Shown: one piece after another, positions 446 through 56,259 of the stretch | Position numbering within the stretch: position 1 is the stretch's first letter | Layout: each line of letters opens with the position of its first letter | Assembly (NCBI GenBank): GCA_951406725.2 | Contig: OX597833.1 | Location: 7,006,001 to 7,070,000 of the forward strand | DNA: 64,000 nucleotides | DNA from: Octopus vulgaris | Lineage: Eukaryota | Direction: 5' to 3' | Notes under the pieces: model-generated | What the model was told of the DNA's origin: nothing | Databases searched by the model: none | The model's input: only the letters and a program-made list of their open reading frames with translations | Made by a program: the position numbers and the translations under genes

Positions 446-511
<66 letters not shown>

Positions 512-512
512 T

Positions 513-728
513 GATAAATCGGGTATAGCTGATGATGTATGGAAAAATGGAGATCTTCTCCCCCCGTGGGATGAAGTTAAAGTAATAGACAGAGAACACC
601 ACTGGAAAATACGAAAACTAAAAGCACATATGCTAGGACACAACAACCTCCTACGCAGACCAAGTGCAGATGTGAGCAGCATATGGGAACCGGTATTAAG
701 GAAGGATAGGAGAATATTAGATTTATAA
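513..728 (+). mobile_element. Penelope-like element GIY-YIG endonuclease, C-terminal fragment
   Basis: DKSGIADDVWKNGD..PWDEVKVIDREHHWKIRKLK resembles the PLE endonuclease C-terminus (S.IA.H.W..G....W.EV.I.D.E..W..RK.KE). The fragment is 5'-truncated at a (TTA)n run. Confidence 0.7.
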
Positions 729-5700: not shown

Positions 5701-6305
5701 TTTTTTTTCTTTCAAATTTACTTCCATTTCTTGCCGAGTGTCTTCCCGACTCCTAGGGCAAAGAAACTCATAGTATACATTGGTAGGCCATTAAACCAAA
5801 CTCAATAGTTCGTTCATTTTTTTTTCTTGAGTTAAATTAAAATACATGGGTAGTAATAGTTCTCACATCGACAATACTCTTCTCAATACGTGTGATGTAC
5901 CAGTTAAGACAATCTTTTGCACTTCTTGCAGGGATGGTAAGCCAGGGATCATTCTCATATAATTTTCGGTTCCCTTCTTGATCATTCCTAGTACTCCTAC
6001 GATCACTGGTATTGTAACCGCCTTGAGATGCCACATTTTCTCAATTTCAATGAGTAGATCTTTATATTTTCTGAGCTTGTCAAACTCTTTCGCCAAGATA
6101 TTAGGATCACAGGGGATGCTCATGTCGATCAATAAGCAAACTTTATTGTTTTGGTCTTTCACAACAATATCTGGTTTATTGGCTTTGATGGTTCGGTCTG
6201 TATGTACTGGAAAGTCCCACAGAATCGTTACATTTTCTCCTTCAGTTACAGCTTCAGGGTGGTGATTATACCACTTGTCGGCAGTTTTGATATTGTAATG
6301 CCGAC
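5701..6305 (-). mobile_element. 5'-truncated R4/Dong-like non-LTR retrotransposon: restriction-like endonuclease C-terminus plus 3' UTR
   Basis: WYNHHPEAVTE..VTILWDFPVHTDRTIKANKPDIVVKD....CLLIDMSIP..KYKDL..EIEKMW..IPVIVGVLG carries the PD..D RLE motif; stop at 5863. The 5' end abuts (TAA)n on the minus strand. The same 3' end recurs at 60034. Confidence 0.88.
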
Positions 6306-6365
<60 letters not shown>

Positions 6366-6689
6366 GTTTTTGGATTTGGTTTGCAAGATTCTTTATGTGA
6401 GTCAGGACTATTGAAAAGGTTGCAAGACGCAACGAAAATTTTAGGAAAATAAAAAAAAGAAATAAGTGGAAATTTTACCGTTGAGTATGTTAAATTATAA
6501 GCCACAAAAAGAAAATGACTCTCCCCAGACACAACAGAATTATTATTATTATTAGAACTCAAGAAATACATGGAGGACATGAAGAAGCACCACACAACAA
6601 GGGACTATACCATCAAGGGACTATACCATCAAGTCCATGCTGCCACAAGTGAAGTTGCTGGACAACATAGGTAAGACTGGTAGGGAACT

Positions 6690-7864: not shown

Positions 7865-7955
7865 AATAACAATAATAATAATAATAATAATAATAACAAC
7901 AACAGCAGCAATGATGTCACTATTCTCCGGGGTATGCCCATCCACCAATAACATA

Positions 7956-8366
7956 GGCGCAGGAGTGGCTGTGTGGTAAGTAACTTGTTTACCAGCCACA
8001 TGGTTCCGGGTTCAGTCCCACTGCGTGGCACCTTGGGCAAGTGTCTTCTACTATAGCCTCGGGCCGACCAAAGCCTTGTGAGTGGATTTGGTAGACGGAA
8101 ACTGAAAGAAGCCCGTCGTATATATGTATATATATATGCGCGTGTGTGTTTGTGTGTCTGTGTTTGTCACCCTAGCATTGCTTGACAACCGATGCTGGTG
8201 TGTTTATGTCCTCGTTACTTAGCGGTTCGGCAAAAGGGACCGATAGAATAAGTACTCGGCTTACAAAAGAATAAGTCCCGGGGTCGAGTTGCTCGATTAA
8301 AGGCGGTGCTCCAGCATGGCCGCAGTCAAAATGACTGAAACAAGTAGAAAGAGAAAGAGAAAGAGT
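7956..8366 (+). mobile_element. Full-length tRNA-derived SINE, family A (octopus OR/OK-like, CORE-like box), with an internal TA/TG microsatellite
   Basis: Head GGCGCAGGAGTGGCTGTGTGGTAAG..GGTTCAGTCCC, CORE-like CACCTTGGGCAAGTGTCTT, tail CCAGCATGGCCGCAGTC..GAAACAAGT(AAAGAG)n. Near-identical copies occur elsewhere in the window. Confidence 0.9.
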
Positions 8367-8569: not shown

Positions 8570-8700
8570 ATCGACCCCAGTGCGAAACTGGTACTGAGGT
8601 ACTTATTTCATCGACACCGAAAGAATGAAAGCAAAGTCGACCTCGGCGGAATTTGAACTCAGAACGTAGCGGCAGATGAAATACCGCTAAGCATTTCGCC
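8570..8700 (-). mobile_element. SINE family B fragment
   Basis: Reverse complement of GTTCTGAGTTCAAATTCCGCCGAGGTCGACTTTGC(C)TTTCAT, as seen at 26400-26930. Confidence 0.75.
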
Positions 8701-8811
8701 TCGGGTCGACCAAAGCCTTATGAGTGGATTTGGTTCACGGAAACTGAAAGAAGCCCGTCGTATATATATATATATATATACGACGGGCTTCTTTCAGTTT
8801 CCGTCAAGCAA

Positions 8812-8874
<63 letters not shown>

Positions 8875-11890: not shown

Positions 11891-11921
11891 TGTAAGTATG
11901 TATGTATGTATGTACACATAT

Positions 11922-12330
11922 AGGCGTACGAGTGGCTGTGTGGTAAGTAGCTTGCTTACCAACCACATGGTTCCGGGTTCAGTCCCACTGCGTGGCACCT
12001 TGGGCAAGTGTCTTCTACTATAGCCTCGAGCCGACCAAAGCCTTGTGAGTGGATTTGGTAGACGGAAACTGAAAGAAGCCCGTCGTATATATGTATATAT
12101 ATATATATGTATATGTGTGTATGTGTTTGTGTTTGTCCCCCTAGCATTGCTTGACAACCGATGCTGGTGTGTTTACGTCCCCGTCACTTAGCGGTTCGGC
12201 AAAAGGGACCGATAGAATAAGTACTGGGCTTACAAAAAGAATAAGTCCCGGGGTCGATTTGCTCGACTAAAGGCGGTGCTCCAGCATGGCCGCAGTCAAA
12301 TGGCTGAAACGAGTAAAAGAGTAAAAGAGT
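11922..12330 (+). mobile_element. Full-length SINE family A copy
   Basis: Near-identical to 7956-8366. Confidence 0.9.
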
Positions 12331-12344
12331 ATATATATATAATA

Positions 12345-28490: not shown

Positions 28491-28531
28491 CTTCAGGCAT
28501 GTTTCGGTATTATTAAACCTCCTCAGCGAAG
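28491..28531 (-). ncRNA. Degenerate minimal hammerhead-like motif
   Basis: Minus strand: CTTCG CTGAGGA GGT TTAATAAT ACC GAAAC AT GCC TGAAG. The triplet is GCC rather than GUC. Confidence 0.45.
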
Positions 28532-36870: not shown

Positions 36871-37498
36871 TGTGTGTGTGTGTGTGTGATGGCACGTGGC
36901 CTAGTCACCAGATTGGGTGTTCGATTCCCGGGTTCTAAAGCAAAATTCTTCATTTGACGTTGCTCTGCGGGTGGAGTGCGGCAGAACAGTTGGGGCGTCG
37001 GAATAAATGTTTTTAACGGTCTATCTTCCAGCTCTCTACATTCTGTGTTCAAATCCCACCCGCCTGGAGGGCAAACTACTCGAGTTTTCCTCCTCAAATC
37101 TCAAGTCTAGTCGTGAATGGCAGCGGATTGTTTAGGGAGTGCTAGAAAGGGTTAACAGGCACGGAATCTGCTCAATGGCAGAGCACCACTGGAAAATGTG
37201 TGTGTGAGTGAGTGTGCGTACGTGATATGTATGTATATCTATCTATTTATCTCTGTATATATATCAGCCGAAATTGCGAGGATGATCTAGTTCTTGACTG
37301 AGGATAGAAAGCTTCGAATTGTTTTTTTGTATCGTCTATCTGGATGTTTTGTTGTCCCTTTTTGTATCACCTAATTGTCCGGATGTTTTGCGTTCTTGTC
37401 CCATTTTGTACTTTATATATATATATATATACCGGAGTAAACACATAAATGTGAAACAAGGTGGAAAAAAGAGTACTCAAATACCAGTGGTAGAGTAA

Positions 37499-37657
37499 TA
37501 TACTTTATTTAAAGCAGCAGAAAATTCAACAAAACCTGTTACTCTGAGTTTCCCGTTGCCGTTCATCGGACAGTTTTTCTACCAAAACTGTCCGATGAAC
37601 GGTAACGGGAAACTCAGAGTAACAGGTTTTGTTGAATTTTCTGCTGCTTTAAATAAA

Positions 37658-37662
<5 letters not shown>
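37499..37662. repeat. Near-perfect ~160-bp fold-back palindrome (Penelope-type) between (TA)n runs
   Basis: TACTTTATTTAAAGCAGCAG...CGGACAGTTTT, short loop, AAAACTGTCCG...CTGCTGCTTTAAATAAAGTA; about one mismatch. Confidence 0.95.
37588..37625 (+). ncRNA. Minimal hammerhead-like motif, with an inverted copy at 37536-37573 on the minus strand
   Basis: CTGT CCGATGA A CG GTAA CG G GAAAC TCAGA GTA ACAG. Stem I is CTGT/ACAG, stem II is capped by GTAA (GCAA in the other arm), stem III is palindromic (ACTC-A-GAGT), triplet GUA. Confidence 0.6.
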
Positions 37663-37704
<42 letters not shown>

Positions 37705-39532: not shown

Positions 39533-39642
39533 TATATGAATAAATAAATGAATGGATTTGAACGAAGATGTTAACAAAATTACTTTACTCGAGAGTAAAG
39601 GAATTTTGTTAACATCTTCGTTCGACTCCATTCATTTATTTA

Positions 39643-39650
<8 letters not shown>
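39533..39650. repeat. ~118-bp fold-back palindrome of the 20166-family tail
   Basis: TATATGAATAAATAAATGAATGG..CTTTACTC GA GAGTAAAG..CCATTCATTTATTTATTCATATA. Confidence 0.92.
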
Positions 39651-39684
<34 letters not shown>

Positions 39685-39696
39685 GGAATACAAAAA

Positions 39697-39903
39697 ATGG
39701 GACGAGAACGCAAAACATCCAGACAGATGATACAAAAAAGGAACAAGAAAAAACACGGACGGGTCATTCGGAGTTTTTTTTCCTCGGTCGAGTTCCAGAT
39801 TATTTTTACTGAGGAAAGAAAACTTCGAATGACCCGTCCTTGTTTTTTCTTGTCCCTTTTTTGTATCATCTGACTGTCTGGATGTTTTGCGTTCTTGTCC
39901 CAT
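39697..39903. repeat. Inverted repeat (arms ~39697-39790 and ~39807-39903), related to 37290-37410
   Basis: ATGGGACGAGAACGCAAAACATCCAGACAG versus CTGTCTGGATGTTTTGCGTTCTTGTCCCAT; lies next to a (TA)n run. Confidence 0.85.
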
Positions 39904-45317: not shown

Positions 45318-45680
45318 TGTAATCAGCCGGTACTTATTTTACACACCCGAAAGGATGAAAGGTAAAGTCGACTCCAGCGGCATTTGAACTCAGAACGCAG
45401 AGTTGGAAGAAATGTCGCAGTGCATGTAACTAGCCCAGCCGGTTCCCCGTTTTACGCCTATCTAATATTAAATCAGCTACCATATTTTTCGTGTTTTAGG
45501 GGCTGTAAGGTGTGATTTGAGTGAAATCTAACACGTGACCCTCCGGTCCGTGGAAGAAACTGTCCGTCATGAAACCAGTATGGGGATGGGGGAATTGGGG
45601 AGTCGCTGACGTAGAGTGACCCTTGCTGAGTGTGAAAAACTAGTTTGATGAGAGCAACTACAACTAAAAAAACAGACCAT

Positions 45681-45838
45681 AGGCGCAGGAGTGGCTGTGT
45701 GGTAAGTAGCTTGCTTACCAACCACATGGTTCCGGGTTCAGTCCTTGGGCAAGTGTCTTCTACTATATCCTCGGGCCGACCAAAGCCTTGTGAGTGGATT
45801 TGGTAGACGGAAACTGAAAGAAACCTGTCGTATATATG

Positions 45839-45899
<61 letters not shown>

Positions 45900-46115
45900 A
45901 TGTTTGTGTGTCTGTGTCTGTCCCCCTAGCATTGCTTGACAATCGATGCTGGTGTGTTTACGTCCCCGTCACTTAGCGGTTCGGCAAAAGAGATCGATAG
46001 AATAAGTACTTGGGCTTACAAAGAATAAGTCCCGGGGTCGAGTTGCTCGACTTTTAAAGGCGGTGCTCCAGCATGGCCGCAGTCAACTGACTGAAACAAA
46101 TAAAAGAGTAAAGAG
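45681..46115 (+). mobile_element. SINE family A copy
   Basis: Near-identical to 7956-8366, with a small internal deletion. Confidence 0.9.
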
Positions 46116-46372
46116 TATACTCTTATGCACCCTACTCACTGATCCCTAGGGGATTTTGATGTAGTTCTGTTGCAGGGAAACATTGGTAAGGTGCCTGGGT
46201 GTCATAAAGCTTATGGAATCGCATTCATGTATTTATCAAGGCCGCAGATAAACATCGTCGTAATCACCCGGCGAAGTATTATATAAATTTATGAAAAAAA
46301 TTTGGCAGTTTGTCAGAATCTGCTGTAGTAGATATGCAGATGTGATAATATGTAAACAGGTGAGTAATTTTG

Positions 46373-46860: not shown

Positions 46861-47962
46861 TGTTTCTTTATTAGCCACACAGGGCTGCACACAGATAGAA
46901 CAAATTACAAGGTAGAGCTTTTCTTTTGAAGGTTTAAGAAAGAAAAAAAAAAAAAAAAAGGAAGGGGGAGTTTCGATCAAAAGGGATCGTAAAAGGAGAG
47001 AAAGAGGACAAAAAAAGGGGGGTTTAAAAAAAAGGGGGGAGGAAAAAAAGATTGATCAATAGGGATCGTTATCACAGAAATGTCAATATGAAGTGTAAAG
47101 GGGAGGACAGGTGAGGTTTACCCGTGCAAAGAAAAGCCTACGGAAAAGACCACGGTAACCTCGGTCAATGATGTCACATTTTATATTTCTTTTTTTTTTT
47201 TTTTTGCAAATAAGCAACTCTCTGTTTTCGATTTCTGGGTTCATAGGACTATGCTCAAGGTGGCTTCGTCATTCATACGTGCCATTCTTGCTACATTCAC
47301 CCATCTTTTTTTAAAACATTCGCTAGACAAAACTTGCCTCTCTACTCTCACTTTCCTTTTCAAGTGGTACTTGAAGAAGTTGATGAGAGATTGACCAGAG
47401 AGGAAAGTGTTTGTCTCCAATCCTTTCAGACGCGTCCACCAGATACATTCTTTCGCCATAGCCACAAGGATGATGAAAATAGCTCTTCCTTCCCGTTTGA
47501 AGGAAGGAGGCGTGACAATATTGACGATAGACTCAGCTGATAAACCGACTCGTCCCACACGTGACAGCAGTTGTTCGACATAAGCCCACAGGTCGGAAAT
47601 TGTTGGACACTGAACGAGTGCGTGCAGAACGGTTTCGTCGCTCTGACCGCATCTCGGGCAGGTCGGCCCCGTGTTTCTCGAGCCGTATCTGTAGAGCTTA
47701 TCCCGAACGGGTAGCGCTTCTCGGTAGCACTGCCAGGCCAGGGATCTCTGGAAGTTGTCCATGGGCCCTGGCCCGAAAGTCGTCCTGAACAGGCGGGTCA
47801 GGTACTCCTCGTCGACGTCCAGGTTCGCCCCGAGCTCGTCGTCGTACCTCCCCTCCACTAAACCCCTATAGAATGCTTTGGTTGTGTTGAAGTCACTTAA
47901 GGTCGACCCAGGACGGCAGAGTTGCTTGAGAGCAACGCGACACTCGCGGTGCCATTCGCCCG
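46861..47962 (-). mobile_element. 5'-truncated Tx1/L1-clade non-LTR retrotransposon (ORF2 C-terminal zinc finger plus 3' UTR), inserted in (GATA)n
   Basis: Uninterrupted frame 47962->47241: ..RSLAWQCYREALPVRDKLY..CPRCGQSDETVLHALVQCP..LW..AKECIWWTR..F..RW (zf-RVT CCHC). The 3' UTR has AATAAA; GATA repeats lie on both sides. Confidence 0.9.
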
Positions 47963-48058
<96 letters not shown>

Positions 48059-49221
48059 TATCCCTCATATATAACTGTACTGTCCGAATGTTTTGTTGTC
48101 GCCTGTTACGGACAGTTAGACGATACAAAAAAAGGACAGGAAAAAAACAAAGACGAGCTATTGGGCGCTTTCAATTTTCAGTCGAGTACCAGATCGTCTT
48201 TGCAGTTTCGACCGGTTATTCTCGGCACTGGTCTAATCTGGCCAGCCCCAAGAATATCTAAGCTAAGAGGACTAGATTCTTTGGAAGAAAGCAAGCGAAT
48301 GTATACGAAAACAAGGACGAAAAAATACGGAGAAATGGTACACGATTACAAATATAAACAACAAGACATTAACAACAGGTGTCTTTCGACTAAGGACGAA
48401 TTAAATTAAGCTGGTGTGTGTGTTATATGCAGTAATCCCTCGTAACGCTTAGACGTGTTAACAAAGGGATGTGGGTTCAAGTCCCACGCGGATAGGAAAG
48501 CCTTCTTTTTCTGTCGAGAGCTTACATGCCCCGTTATTAGACTATTTTCCTTAGTATACATACATATATACATATGTATATTAATGGAAGACGAGTACGA
48601 CAATTAATGCAAATATGGATAAATGCATTTCGTCGGCCGGACTTTTATCTAGAGACATTACGATATCGGCATTGAAAAAACATGGAATCACTCATCTGGA
48701 AAATGCCATTTCTTATTCCATTATTTGTTTCAGTTATCGGACTGTAAGCAAGCCGGAGCTGGAGCACCACTTGGAGTATTGCTCATGGCAACTGTAGAAC
48801 GGTAGAAAACATAAAACAGATTACGGATTTCCATAGAGTTTCTGCCTGCCGATTTCATTTATAAGGTCCGAAACTACAACAGAAGACACTTGGTCTCGGT
48901 GTCACACAGCAGGAAGGAACACGAAGCTATGTAGTGGCGGTGCGCGAACCTCTTAGCTAATCAGCCTTGTCTACGTTGATGGCGTCGATAACAGACTGTA
49001 TTGATGGGTGTGTATCTATATATGTTGGTTAATGTGTACAACGTCTATAACACGTTAAGTTCATATCACGAAGGATATTTACCTGGTGGTGTCATCTCTT
49101 ATCAAGAAGAAGATTGCACGGTGATCGCCATAAGATTTAAGCTTATATAAGAATACCATTATTGTTATTTACAGGATTGTAAAATACGGCATCGTATAAC
49201 AAAACCATTCGCACCGAAAGC

Positions 49222-49602: not shown

Positions 49603-49640
<38 letters not shown>

Positions 49641-49644
<4 letters not shown>

Positions 49645-49850
49645 TAATCCAAACAAGAAAACACAAAGAGAAAACACAAGAACGCGAGGACGTGGAACAA
49701 ATATAGTATTATTAGACGCTCAGGAAAGATGGGAAGAAGGAGGGTTTAACGTTTCGAGCGGAGCTCTTCGTCGGAAACATAGGAGAAGGAAAGATCCAGA
49801 GAAGGGAAGACAGAGGGAAAAAAATCGCCAACGGTACACACGAGGTCACA
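49641..49850 (-). mobile_element. ~210-bp Penelope-type element with a minimal hammerhead motif (49744-49778), abutting (TA)n
   Basis: Minus strand: GTTT CCGACGA A GAGC TCC GCTC GAAAC GTT AAAC. A second copy lies at 51921-52127. Confidence 0.7.
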
Positions 49851-49874
49851 ATAGATAGATATAGATAGATAGAT

Positions 49875-49962
<88 letters not shown>

Positions 49963-51846: not shown

Positions 51847-51920
<74 letters not shown>

Positions 51921-51924
<4 letters not shown>

Positions 51925-52127
51925 TAATCCAAACAAGAAAGCACAAAAAACACAACAACGCGAGGACGTGGAACAAATATAGTATTATTGGACACTCAGG
52001 AAAGAAGGAAAGAAGGAAGGTTCAACGTTTCGAGCGGAGCTCTTCGTCGGAAACATAGGAGAAGGAAAGATCCAGAGAAGGGAAGACAGAGGAAAAAAAA
52101 TCGCCAACGGTACACACGAGGTCACAT
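51921..52127 (-). mobile_element. Second copy of the 49641 Penelope-type element (hammerhead motif at 52020-52054)
   Basis: High identity to 49641-49850; abuts (TA)n. Confidence 0.75.
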
Positions 52128-52212
52128 TTTGAAAGACATACATATATATACATATATATATATATGTAAATGTATGTATGTATGTATGTATGTATGTATG
52201 TATGTATGTATG

Positions 52213-52559: not shown

Positions 52560-54101
52560 GCACTCCCACCAAAATTAACTAATCTCACAATTAAAAAAAA
52601 TTAATTAAATTGAACTAAATTGTTTCTATCAACAGACATTCTAGATTTAGTATCTGCGAATGTAATGAGGCCGGGTTCGATCTTGAACACACTCCGTTCG
52701 CCTTACTAAAATCCATACGCAATACACACACACACATATATATATGTACACACCACACACACACACTGGCGCAACGAGGTAGGGATCTTTAGGACCAAAA
52801 GGAACCGAAATATATAAAGGTGTGTGTATGTATTTGTGTAGAAATGTTTATCTGTGTATGAACATCAGTGTGTGTGTGTGTATATTTATTCATGCTTATG
52901 TGATATATATATATATATACGTACAGATAGATAGGTTCATATCGGTATATACAAAATATAATTACATATTTACATTCATATGTGTATATACGTGAATATC
53001 TGCGCACGCACATATATATATATATATATGCGTATACGCTCATGTATATATATATATATATATATATGTAAGCTTTAAGTTGTAATAGTCTTTATTCCCT
53101 AATTTTCACCAAATTTTCAAGGAGCACACTCCTCCTCCTCCTCTTCATTCCTCTATCCCTCTCCCACCCTCTTTTTCTTTACATACTCCTCCCACTCCGT
53201 CCTCCCCCTCCTACCACCATTATATTGCCTGCTAAACTGTGAAATCTTGTCTAGCTTTCGGCTCCACCCCCTTCGTAGACACCTCGCTCTCTCAGCCTCA
53301 TTCAGCACTCTCTCTCTCCATCTTTCTCTCTCTCTTTCTCAATCTATTTGTCTGTCTGTCTCTCTCTCTTTCTCTCTCTTTCTCAATCTATTTGTCTGTC
53401 TGTCTCTCTCTCTTTCTCTCTCTGTCTCTCTCGCAGTCTATCTAATTCTCTATCTTTTTATCTCTTCCCTTGTCTCTCTCTTTTTCTCTCATTGCATCTG
53501 TCTAGAATATCTCTTTGTAGTTCTCTCTTTCTTTCTGTCACTTTGTCTCTCTGTTTCTCTCTCTTTCTTTCAGTCATTCTCTTTTAATCTCTCTTTTACT
53601 CTCTCTTTCTCTCTCCCGCTCTATCCATTTATCTGTATGTGTCTATCTCTCTATCTTCCTGTCTATCTTTCTATCTATCTATCTATCTCTTTATCTGTCT
53701 CTCTCCTTCTCACTCTCTGTCTGTCTGTTTGTCTGTCTATCAATCTATCTCTCTATGTCTCTCTCTGTGTTTATCTGTCTCTCTCTCACTCACTCTATCT
53801 CTCTATATATTTATATCTCTCACGCTCTGTCTCTACCTACCTATCTATCTCTCTGTCCATCTCTATCTATCTCTATCTCTATCACCTTTGCTATCTTCCT
53901 CTCCCAGAGTATCTCTCGTTCAACACACCGCCAGCATATACACCCAGTTATTCTTCACTTCGCTCTTCGTAACACACACACACACACACACGGCATAAGA
54001 TACACATACAGACTTTGAAACTATACCGATGACCAAAACATGATGTGCATGCATATATATATACAACACATGTGTGTATGTATGTATATATATGTATGTG
54101 T

Positions 54102-54109
<8 letters not shown>

Positions 54110-54152
<43 letters not shown>

Positions 54153-54468
54153 GAAACCAAGGTGATAAGTGTGTGCGTAGATCTATGTATGAGACGAGAG
54201 AAGATGGGTGATAAGTGTATGTCTGTATATGAGTACGCGTGCGAGCGTGTGAGTGTGTGTGTGTATGTGTGTGTGTGTGTGTGTGTATGTGTGTGTGTGT
54301 GTGATTGTTTGTGTGTGTGTGTGTGTGTTTGTCACCGTCAAACAAACAGAGGTGGATGAAAATGACAGGAAAAGAAGGCGTGACTTAGTTTGACACAAAA
54401 ACTATACGGGCGCGCGTGTGCGCACGCGTTCAACTGCTTGCATACATTTCCACACGCCCTCACATGCA

Positions 54469-54501
<33 letters not shown>

Positions 54502-54539
54502 TCGTGCACACATCTTACTTTTCCTCTCCCTCCCTAACT

Positions 54540-54586
<47 letters not shown>

Positions 54587-54877
54587 ATACATATGTTATT
54601 ATATATATATATATATGTACTTACACTTTTATATACGTATAGACAAACATACATGAATGTATGTAAGTATATAATTATATATATATATATATATATATGT
54701 GTATACGCACAAGCATATGTATTTCTACATCTATGCTCCTATACACATATATACACACATGCCGACACGCTCCTGCCACTCACTAAATTAACTCGCACAT
54801 GTGTTCAAATAAAAACACCCGTATCATAACATATATATTTTATATGAGTGTGTTTGTGTGCGTGTGTACAAATACAT

Positions 54878-54914
<37 letters not shown>

Positions 54915-54938
54915 CATACATATATGTACACTCATACG

Positions 54939-54978
<40 letters not shown>

Positions 54979-55109
54979 GAAACCAAGGTGATAAGTGTGT
55001 GCGTAGATCTATGTATGAGACGAGAGAAGATGGGTGATAAGTGTATGTCTGTATATGAGTACGCGTGCGAGCGTGTGTGTGTGTGTGTGTTGTGTGTGTG
55101 TGTGTGTGT

Positions 55110-55146
<37 letters not shown>

Positions 55147-55308
55147 TTTGTGTGTGTGTGTGTGTGTTTGTCACCGCCAAACAAACAGAGGTGGATGAAA
55201 ATGACAGGAAAAGAAGGCGTGACTTAGTTTGACACAAAAACTACACGGGCGCGCGTGTGCGCACGCGTTCAACTGCTTGCATACATTTCCACACGCCCTC
55301 ACATGCAT

Positions 55309-55344
<36 letters not shown>

Positions 55345-55382
55345 TCGTGCACACATCTTACTTTTCCTCTCCCTCCCTAACT

Positions 55383-55425
<43 letters not shown>

Positions 55426-55711
55426 ATACATATGTTATATATATATATATGTACTTACACTTTTATATACGTATAGACAAACATACATGAATGTATGTAA
55501 GTATATAATTATATATATATATATATATATATGTGTATACGCACAAGCATATGTATTTCTACATCTATGCTCCTATACACATATATACACACATGCCGAC
55601 ACGCTCCTGCCACTCACTAAATTAACTCGCACATGTGTTCAAATAAAAACACCCGTATCATAACATATATATTTTATATGAGTGTGTTTGTGTGCGTGTG
55701 TACAAATACAT

Positions 55712-55752
<41 letters not shown>

Positions 55753-55787
55753 CATACATGTACACTCATACGTGTTTGTGTGTGTGT
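54110..55787 (+). repeat. Tandem duplication of an ~830-bp unit
   Basis: GAAACGAAACCAAGGTGATAAG occurs at 54148 and 54974. The unique cores are nearly identical, SSR lengths differ, and the junctions fall in (TG)n. Confidence 0.92.
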
Positions 55788-56259
55788 TAGAGTGTATTAT
55801 GTAAATATACACATACATATATCTACACACTGCCACATCATAAATACATTAATGTATATATATACTTATGTGTGAATGTGTGTGTGTCTGCATTATACAT
55901 ACATGTACATGTGAGTGTGAATGCGTGTATGTGTGCTTTTGTCTATGTATTTATGCATATATGTTTAAATATGTGTGTGAATGTTTATGTGACTAAACAC
56001 ATACACGTACACACTATTGTATATATATATGTACTCATACATATGCGTGCGTGTATATATATATATGTGTGTAGATGTGTTTATGTGTGAAATATGTATG
56101 TACATACGCATGCATTTATCTATATATTTATATAAACTTTCATTGCTTCGCACTTACGCATACGTAAGGACAGCGATGTACATAAGCACACACACATCAA
56201 CACATACACACACACACACACACATTTCTGTATTTACATTACACAAAATTCACACTTAA

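Follow-up and report, generated by a model that had tools for sequence, protein, structure and literature searches.

A palindrome of head-to-head repeat copies turns within two bases of a predicted hammerhead cleavage site in Octopus vulgaris

The palindrome at 39533-39650 of the window (the whole stretch of 64,000 nucleotides of Octopus vulgaris DNA analysed here) is built of two copies, placed head to head, of the final 60 bases of a repeat that bears a hammerhead and is present in high copy number; we refer to this repeat family as family A. Judged from its sequence, the palindrome is very probably an inverted stub of the Penelope-like element (PLE) type, an assignment that rests on structure, with the ORF that defines these elements not found in the window. 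The left arm begins at +3 relative to the predicted cut in the family-A hammerhead, so that the palindrome turns within two bases of the bond and is not a perfect fold at it. We consider it likely that the palindrome is an ordinary PLE head-to-head insertion scar.

A sequence-only reading of this DNA had described a fold-back palindrome at this place, and the palindrome is real: blastn recovered a self-match of 118 bp at 93% identity (E 1e-44), and 55 of 58 positions are complementary in an ungapped pairing of the arms 39533-39590 and 39593-39650 around a 2-base GA loop (39591-39592). All three arm mismatches are carried by the left arm (p 0.25). This arm (39533-39590, minus strand) is an inverted family-A 3' end running from +3 after the predicted cut to the TA boundary, and the right copy (39591-39650, plus strand) is a family-A 3' end running from +1, or from -2, to the TA boundary; the right copy matches 20131-20215 (minus) over 88 columns at 93% identity. 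The 22-mer with which the right copy opens has three matches in the window, at 20192-20213 (minus), at 39591-39612 (plus) and, with three mismatches, at 39571-39592 (minus), and it was matched in 0 of 100 shuffles. The right copy had been said to be preceded by its own reverse complement, and an inverted copy does precede it, but in this copy, the left arm, the tail's two opening bases are missing. Both arms stop at one 3' boundary, and no one-sided tail of 30-40 bases is present at the palindrome, which occurs as a single copy in the 64-kb window and whose arms are pieces of a longer, one-directional element. The (TA)n tract at 39646-39678, common to the palindrome and a neighbouring inverted structure (39697-39903), was likely the target and primer of the insertion; because the left end keeps only TATA, any target duplication is unreadable. 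Both arms end at the TA boundary, and the earlier proposal of reverse transcription anchored at (TA)n is supported.

The family is represented elsewhere in the window by a 5'-truncated copy at 20166-20362 (minus), which retains the whole ribozyme motif and is followed by (TA)n at 20131-20165; both family-A insertions in the window (2 of 2) end in (TA)n. The element at 20166-20291 (minus) reads as previously given, and the type I hammerhead motif delimited by a descriptor and a pair table (20201-20299, minus) reaches beyond 20291 to 20299 with the second part of stem I. It comprises a 6-bp stem Ib (20299-20294/20201-20206), a 5-bp stem Ia (20291-20287/20209-20213), the core (20286-20280), a 6-bp stem II (20279-20274/20226-20231) with a 42-base insert, GAAA at 20225-20222, a stem III of 2 bp within an 8-base palindrome (20222-20215), and the triplet GUC at 20216-20214. 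Hammerhead cleavage falls after an NUH triplet, and this rule together with the descriptor places the predicted scissile bond after C17 (20214), that is, at 20213/20214 on the minus strand. All 19 listed pairs are standard or G-U. The motif was the top of five matches to the hammerhead descriptor in the window (score 15), against a background in which 5 of 30 shuffles gave one match scoring at least 11. Rfam gave no match in the window at the gathering threshold and no hammerhead among the 27 matches at E<=10; the window copy that was scanned has G at position 9 and a long stem II insert.

Contigs from four of 24 listed sequencing runs, bearing four organism labels, were aligned to 20150-20682 only; the alignment skipped 20150-20179, and contig depth is not equivalent to copy number. 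Family A proved to be high-copy in all four runs (5557, 4294, 4183 and 2540 contigs aligned). The core of the window copy reads CUGAUGG, and the canonical A at 20280 accounts for approximately 100% of contig depth in each of the four runs (83, 58, 34 and 30 contigs); CUGAUGG is a private change of the window copy, and the core of the family is the canonical CUGAUGA. The majority letters of the contigs at 20230 and 20296 convert two G-U pairs (20275/20230 and 20296/20204) to G-C, and letter variants at 20209, 20211 and 20291 are unphased in the contigs. The canonical core and the majority letters point to a conserved canonical motif in family A, a predicted ribozyme. The earlier assignment to the hammerhead family is thus borne out by the complete pair table and by the core in all four runs, with cleavage itself a prediction from sequence. 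In each of the four runs, 7-14 contigs have a loose end at 20231, where a family-A subfamily with a different stem II insert departs, and four contigs of run X8 continue with different letters beyond 20359.

These features resemble those of PLE hammerheads, which are described as marked by a stem III that is short and palindromic and as lying close to the 3' end (PMC4209133, PMC6765202, as far as the available text of each goes). Like the PLE pseudo-LTR hammerheads treated in part of Cervera and De la Pena 2014 (PMC4209133), family A has a type I motif with G10.1-C11.1, occurs as dispersed, single, high-copy motifs, and has a 2-bp stem III inside a palindrome (the dimer type). It is larger than the minimal forms in that text, with a stem I of 5 + 6 bp and a 6-bp stem II with its 42-base insert, and it differs in that position 9 is followed directly by position 10.1. 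The same source also describes metazoan hammerhead motifs paired 100-700 bases apart on opposite strands. Animal non-LTR retrozymes are tandem hammerhead units according to portions of PMC7761336 and bioRxiv 10.64898/2026.07.22.740005; family A is like them in being non-coding, in carrying a type I hammerhead and in probably being moved by PLE proteins, and differs from them in being dispersed and, here, truncated. No tandem family-A copies were found in the window, and no end-to-start joint was present among the 15 joints listed of 17. Likewise, no family-A ORF was detected in the 64-kb window, nor was an autonomous partner found there.

The junction itself can be read in more than one way. 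The minus-strand reading of the palindrome gives cDNA up to +1 and then sense sequence from +3. The junction TCGA (39589-39592) is self-complementary, with GA as the 2-base loop; since TC (39589-39590) is also the native UC of GUC, the right copy is equally readable from -2, and the left arm would start at +5 if TC were assigned to the right copy. A cDNA ending at +1 has 0 bp of tight self-complement, and one ending at -2 has a 2-bp snap-back and reproduces the observed junction letters exactly. At least 2 bp of self-complement are offered by 42 of the 173 possible cDNA ends, which makes the bond site permissive rather than special. If ends are taken as uniform over 60-200 bases, the chance of a symmetric turn in a 5-base window is about 3-8% per palindrome, and the chance of at least one such turn among the approximately four palindromes of the window is 10-29%. 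At the level of sequence, the junction letters alone are unable to decide between cut and uncut RNA, the break point being ambiguous by two bases. The idea of a palindrome turning at a cleavage site therefore holds to the extent that the turn lies within two bases of the predicted bond, with its exact position ambiguous by that same distance. Cleavage as the cause of the turn was not supported, as uncut RNA read two bases past the bond fits the junction at least as well.

Both arms are the family-A 3' end, both end at TA and they meet at TCGA, and from this arrangement we infer every enzymatic step that follows. A PLE protein acting in trans would nick the (TA)n tract, and reverse transcription would start at the fixed 3' boundary of family A on an uncut RNA. 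Synthesis would stop after about 60 bases, two bases past the predicted bond, and the last two cDNA bases (GA) may then pair with the cDNA's own TC two bases back. Self-primed synthesis would copy the cDNA back to TA, where its end would be joined to TA on the other side. We favour this account as a whole (uncut RNA, PLE in trans and GA/TC self-priming, with the near-bond turn a coincidence aided by microhomology) tentatively, at a little short of an even chance. It draws on the junction letters, which an end at -2 yields with 2 bp of pairing where an end at +1 has none; on the even contig depth across the bond in three runs and on the inverted structures nearby that keep or cross their motifs, both set out below; and on a further family, two copies of which share a 5' end approximately 75 bases upstream of an intact motif. 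Against it stand the low chance per palindrome of a turn so close to the bond, the very weak primer that a 2-bp stem with a 2-base loop would make, which 42 of 173 ends would equal or better, and the autonomous partner of family A that was not found in the window.

The literature on PLEs and other retroelements bears on this account from both sides. The available text of PMC8557442 describes, for EN+ PLEs, inverted 5'-truncated copies with an optional one-sided tail of 30-40 bases and a (TA)n/(CA)n bias, and that of PMC3846280 describes head-to-head junction palindromes of PLEs in the rotifer Adineta vaga that were read as self-priming, again with an optional tail. The present palindrome is like the EN+ PLE inverted copies of these sources (Craig et al. 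2021, PMC8557442; PMC3846280) in its head-to-head truncation, its junction palindrome, the hammerhead in the repeat and a microsatellite target that hides the duplication. It differs from those described there in measuring only 118 bases, in having no ORF, in its near-perfect symmetry, in the missing one-sided tail and in a pivot at the predicted bond and not upstream of the motif. These texts already document both self-priming and inverted copies with truncation in PLEs, so the palindrome does not represent the new route to hairpins that had been suggested. The relevant parts of PMC11167929 report that the protein of a lizard PLE makes nicks in AT-rich DNA and carries out extension on both strands, that ribozyme cleavage is dispensable in vitro, mutants of the ribozyme having no effect on insertion, and that RNA reads neither begin nor end at the cut; minimal PLE hammerheads, according to part of PMC4209133, cut poorly and as dimers. 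All of this favours uncut RNA. The R2 snap-back junctions discussed in portions of PMC11371274 and PMC11331408 are like the palindrome in that a cDNA 3' end self-primes before joining. They often follow full-length cDNA, which speaks against a stop on uncut RNA and for run-off on a cut one. R2 differs in its protein, its rDNA target, its engineered templates and the minor junction class concerned, and priming there occurs at internal cDNA positions, with a 2-base loop not demonstrated in those portions.

In the model put forward in the earlier reading, as framed here, the hammerhead cut the RNA after GUC, reverse transcription ran off at +1, and the cDNA end folded back on itself or, alternatively, was joined to another cDNA that had ended at +3. 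It accounts at once for a minus strand that reads cDNA to +1 and sense from +3 and for a turn that has only the small chance given above of falling at the bond in any one palindrome, and the canonical family core and the stems conserved in contigs also count in its favour. We nonetheless regard it as unlikely, if well short of negligible. No self-complement is available at +1 to prime the fold, and the native UC precedes GAGAG at the junction; moreover, the hammerhead fold of the window copy (-24.4 kcal/mol) lies 3.6 kcal/mol above the free minimum (-28.0 kcal/mol), the lizard PLE needs no cleavage in the sections of PMC11167929 cited, and the 10-29% chance that one of about four window palindromes would match the bond weakens the coincidence. 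If the prior probability that the template had been cut is put at a few percent, which is our own estimate, we think it rather improbable that this copy of the palindrome records cleavage.

A peak of truncation or inversion points at the GUC bond, which the cleavage model had led one to look for, was sought in the contigs of the four runs, and no pile-up of contig beginnings or ends was seen at the cut or elsewhere in the aligned region (a weak test). Neither the 24 loose ends listed (of 915) nor the 15 joints listed (of 17) include one at 20213-20215. The depth ratio 20218/20211 across the bond was 1.03 in X4, 0.92 in X7 and 0.96 in X8, showing no step; in run X1 it was 0.65, rising again by 20230, and this fall across the bond counts against uncut RNA. 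The depth fall upstream of the bond was not used as a truncation curve, because it partly reflects the stem II subfamily at 20231. No family-A strand switch appeared among the 15 joints listed of 17, which we do not take as evidence of absence. As the tail is short and partly skipped by the alignment, and as the window's own palindrome did not show up in it, the test excludes only a dominant class of ends.

Two further inverted structures of the window that bear hammerheads have their turns upstream of the predicted cuts, and most of the inversion joints listed for a neighbouring family cross its cut; this indicates that fold-backs form here without cleavage, and it argues against run-off on cut RNA. 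The palindrome at 37498-37663 is young: 79 of 80 positions are complementary around a 6-base spacer, it has a TA end, and each arm holds a hammerhead-like motif, with the core at 37592 on the plus strand and at 37569 on the minus strand (read by eye and with a pair table). Its arms begin at the first base of stem I, and it turns 38 bases upstream of the predicted cut of this family C (37621/37622). The elements at 49608-49888 and 51888-52165 (minus) are 91% identical, have a TA end and an intact minimal hammerhead, and begin sharply at the same 5' position, which lies about 75 bases upstream of the motif. In family B (20373-20682; motif core 20632-20626, minus, with a palindromic stem III; predicted cut 20586/20585), one arm of the window copy at 20467-20822 is inverted (20684-20822) and ends at -20, and the other arm reaches further upstream. 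Six opposite-strand joints of family B were listed, which we assumed to be head-to-head. None of their 12 ends lies within 3 bases of the predicted cut and one lies within 5 bases (37% by chance), in the joint 20450/20581 (+5), which falls at a 3-base reference gap where exact placement is impossible. Five of the six have an arm crossing the predicted cut, and four of the six have one end at 20649-20657, which suggests that the 5' boundary of the family is fixed, some 70 bases upstream of the cut.

The same joints bear on a third account, in which the PLE protein nicked both TA strands, the RNA was uncut and two cDNAs, stopping at -2 and +3, were joined through GA/TC microhomology. Purified PLE protein, for which a dimer is predicted, cleaves and extends both strands in the text available from PMC11167929, the asymmetry of the family B joints amounts to 36-154 bases, and the arms of two inverted structures in the window differ in their 3' ends, as independent cDNAs would give. 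Independent cDNAs, on the other hand, would seldom come to a stop only 2-6 bases apart, and the two arms of the palindrome end at a single 3' boundary and agree at +5 in the rarer letter, the other letter holding 57-67% of contig depth at this position (20209). Twin priming thus seems to us unlikely, and marginally more so than run-off on cut RNA.

A later event at the DNA level, by template switch or break repair at TCGA, or a palindrome that is itself a small mobile unit copied whole, such as a MITE or another DNA transposon derivative, is very improbable: TCGA is self-complementary and the left flank retains only TATA, both in its favour, but the left arm stops exactly at the TA boundary without the unique right flank, the same architecture recurs in three other families within 64 kb, and the window has only one copy of the palindrome. 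Fold-back chimeras occur in sequencing libraries, and the palindrome locus itself was not covered by the contig alignment, but an assembly or library artefact is hardly credible here, with arms that differ at 3 of 58 positions and a left arm that has its own unique flank.

The broader proposition that the family-A hammerhead cuts in the germ line, that the 3' product templates the PLE enzyme, and that a subclass of stubs and palindromes across the genome starts at +1 to +3 appears doubtful to us. If true, it would provide a fossil record of in vivo PLE hammerhead activity, and the in vivo role of PLE hammerheads is called a mystery in part of PMC7761336. Copy ends that peaked at the bond would offer inexpensive evidence of germ-line cleavage, which one ambiguous junction does not. 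This genome is well suited to such a count of ends, with thousands of contigs per run and several hammerhead-bearing families within 64 kb, and searches of the open literature found no study placing the inversion points of PLEs relative to the hammerhead bond. As it stands, the palindrome is ordinary retroelement debris able, by its predicted fold, to form a stable RNA hairpin (-71 kcal/mol).

Several further observations concern repeats of the same kind. The inverted pair at 39697-39903, which has the longer 3' end on one side only, belongs with 37270-37431 and 48075-48240 to a third TA-ended family, of which the copy at 48200 has a possible degenerate hammerhead upstream; the hammerhead of that family is not fixed, and 39697-39903 was counted neither for nor against cleavage. 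Hammerhead-like motifs are also present at 40192-40150 and 28526-28490 (minus), the latter with a changed cleavage triplet as read by eye; the motifs at 28526 and 37592 were missed by a relaxed descriptor and rest on reading by eye and a pair table. Outside the window, the 22-mer had no match in public metagenomes, and the search of GTDB genomes gave none either. A looser 20-mer gave 31 matches in public collections, all 31 with unrelated flanks and rejected as chance, and four viral matches were likewise rejected, all four being unrelated.

The DNA of the window is animal-like and rich in microsatellites. A 72-aa reading-frame remnant at 510-728 (plus) resembles the C-terminus of a PLE GIY-YIG endonuclease; it had no Pfam match, its Atlas score of 0.89 to a cluster with 17% GIY-YIG members gives a lead only, and it is unlinked to family A. 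An 84-base palindrome centred on a TA run (8698-8812) derives from a piece of an abundant 400-base repeat, copies of which lie at 7952-8360, 11920-12333, 17213-17610 and 45678-46122. Non-LTR retrotransposon remnants, with a zf-RVT match (E 6.6e-08), and a direct duplication of 913 bases whose copies are 94% identical are together found at 47244-48170 (minus), 5866-6474 (minus) and 54066-55795.
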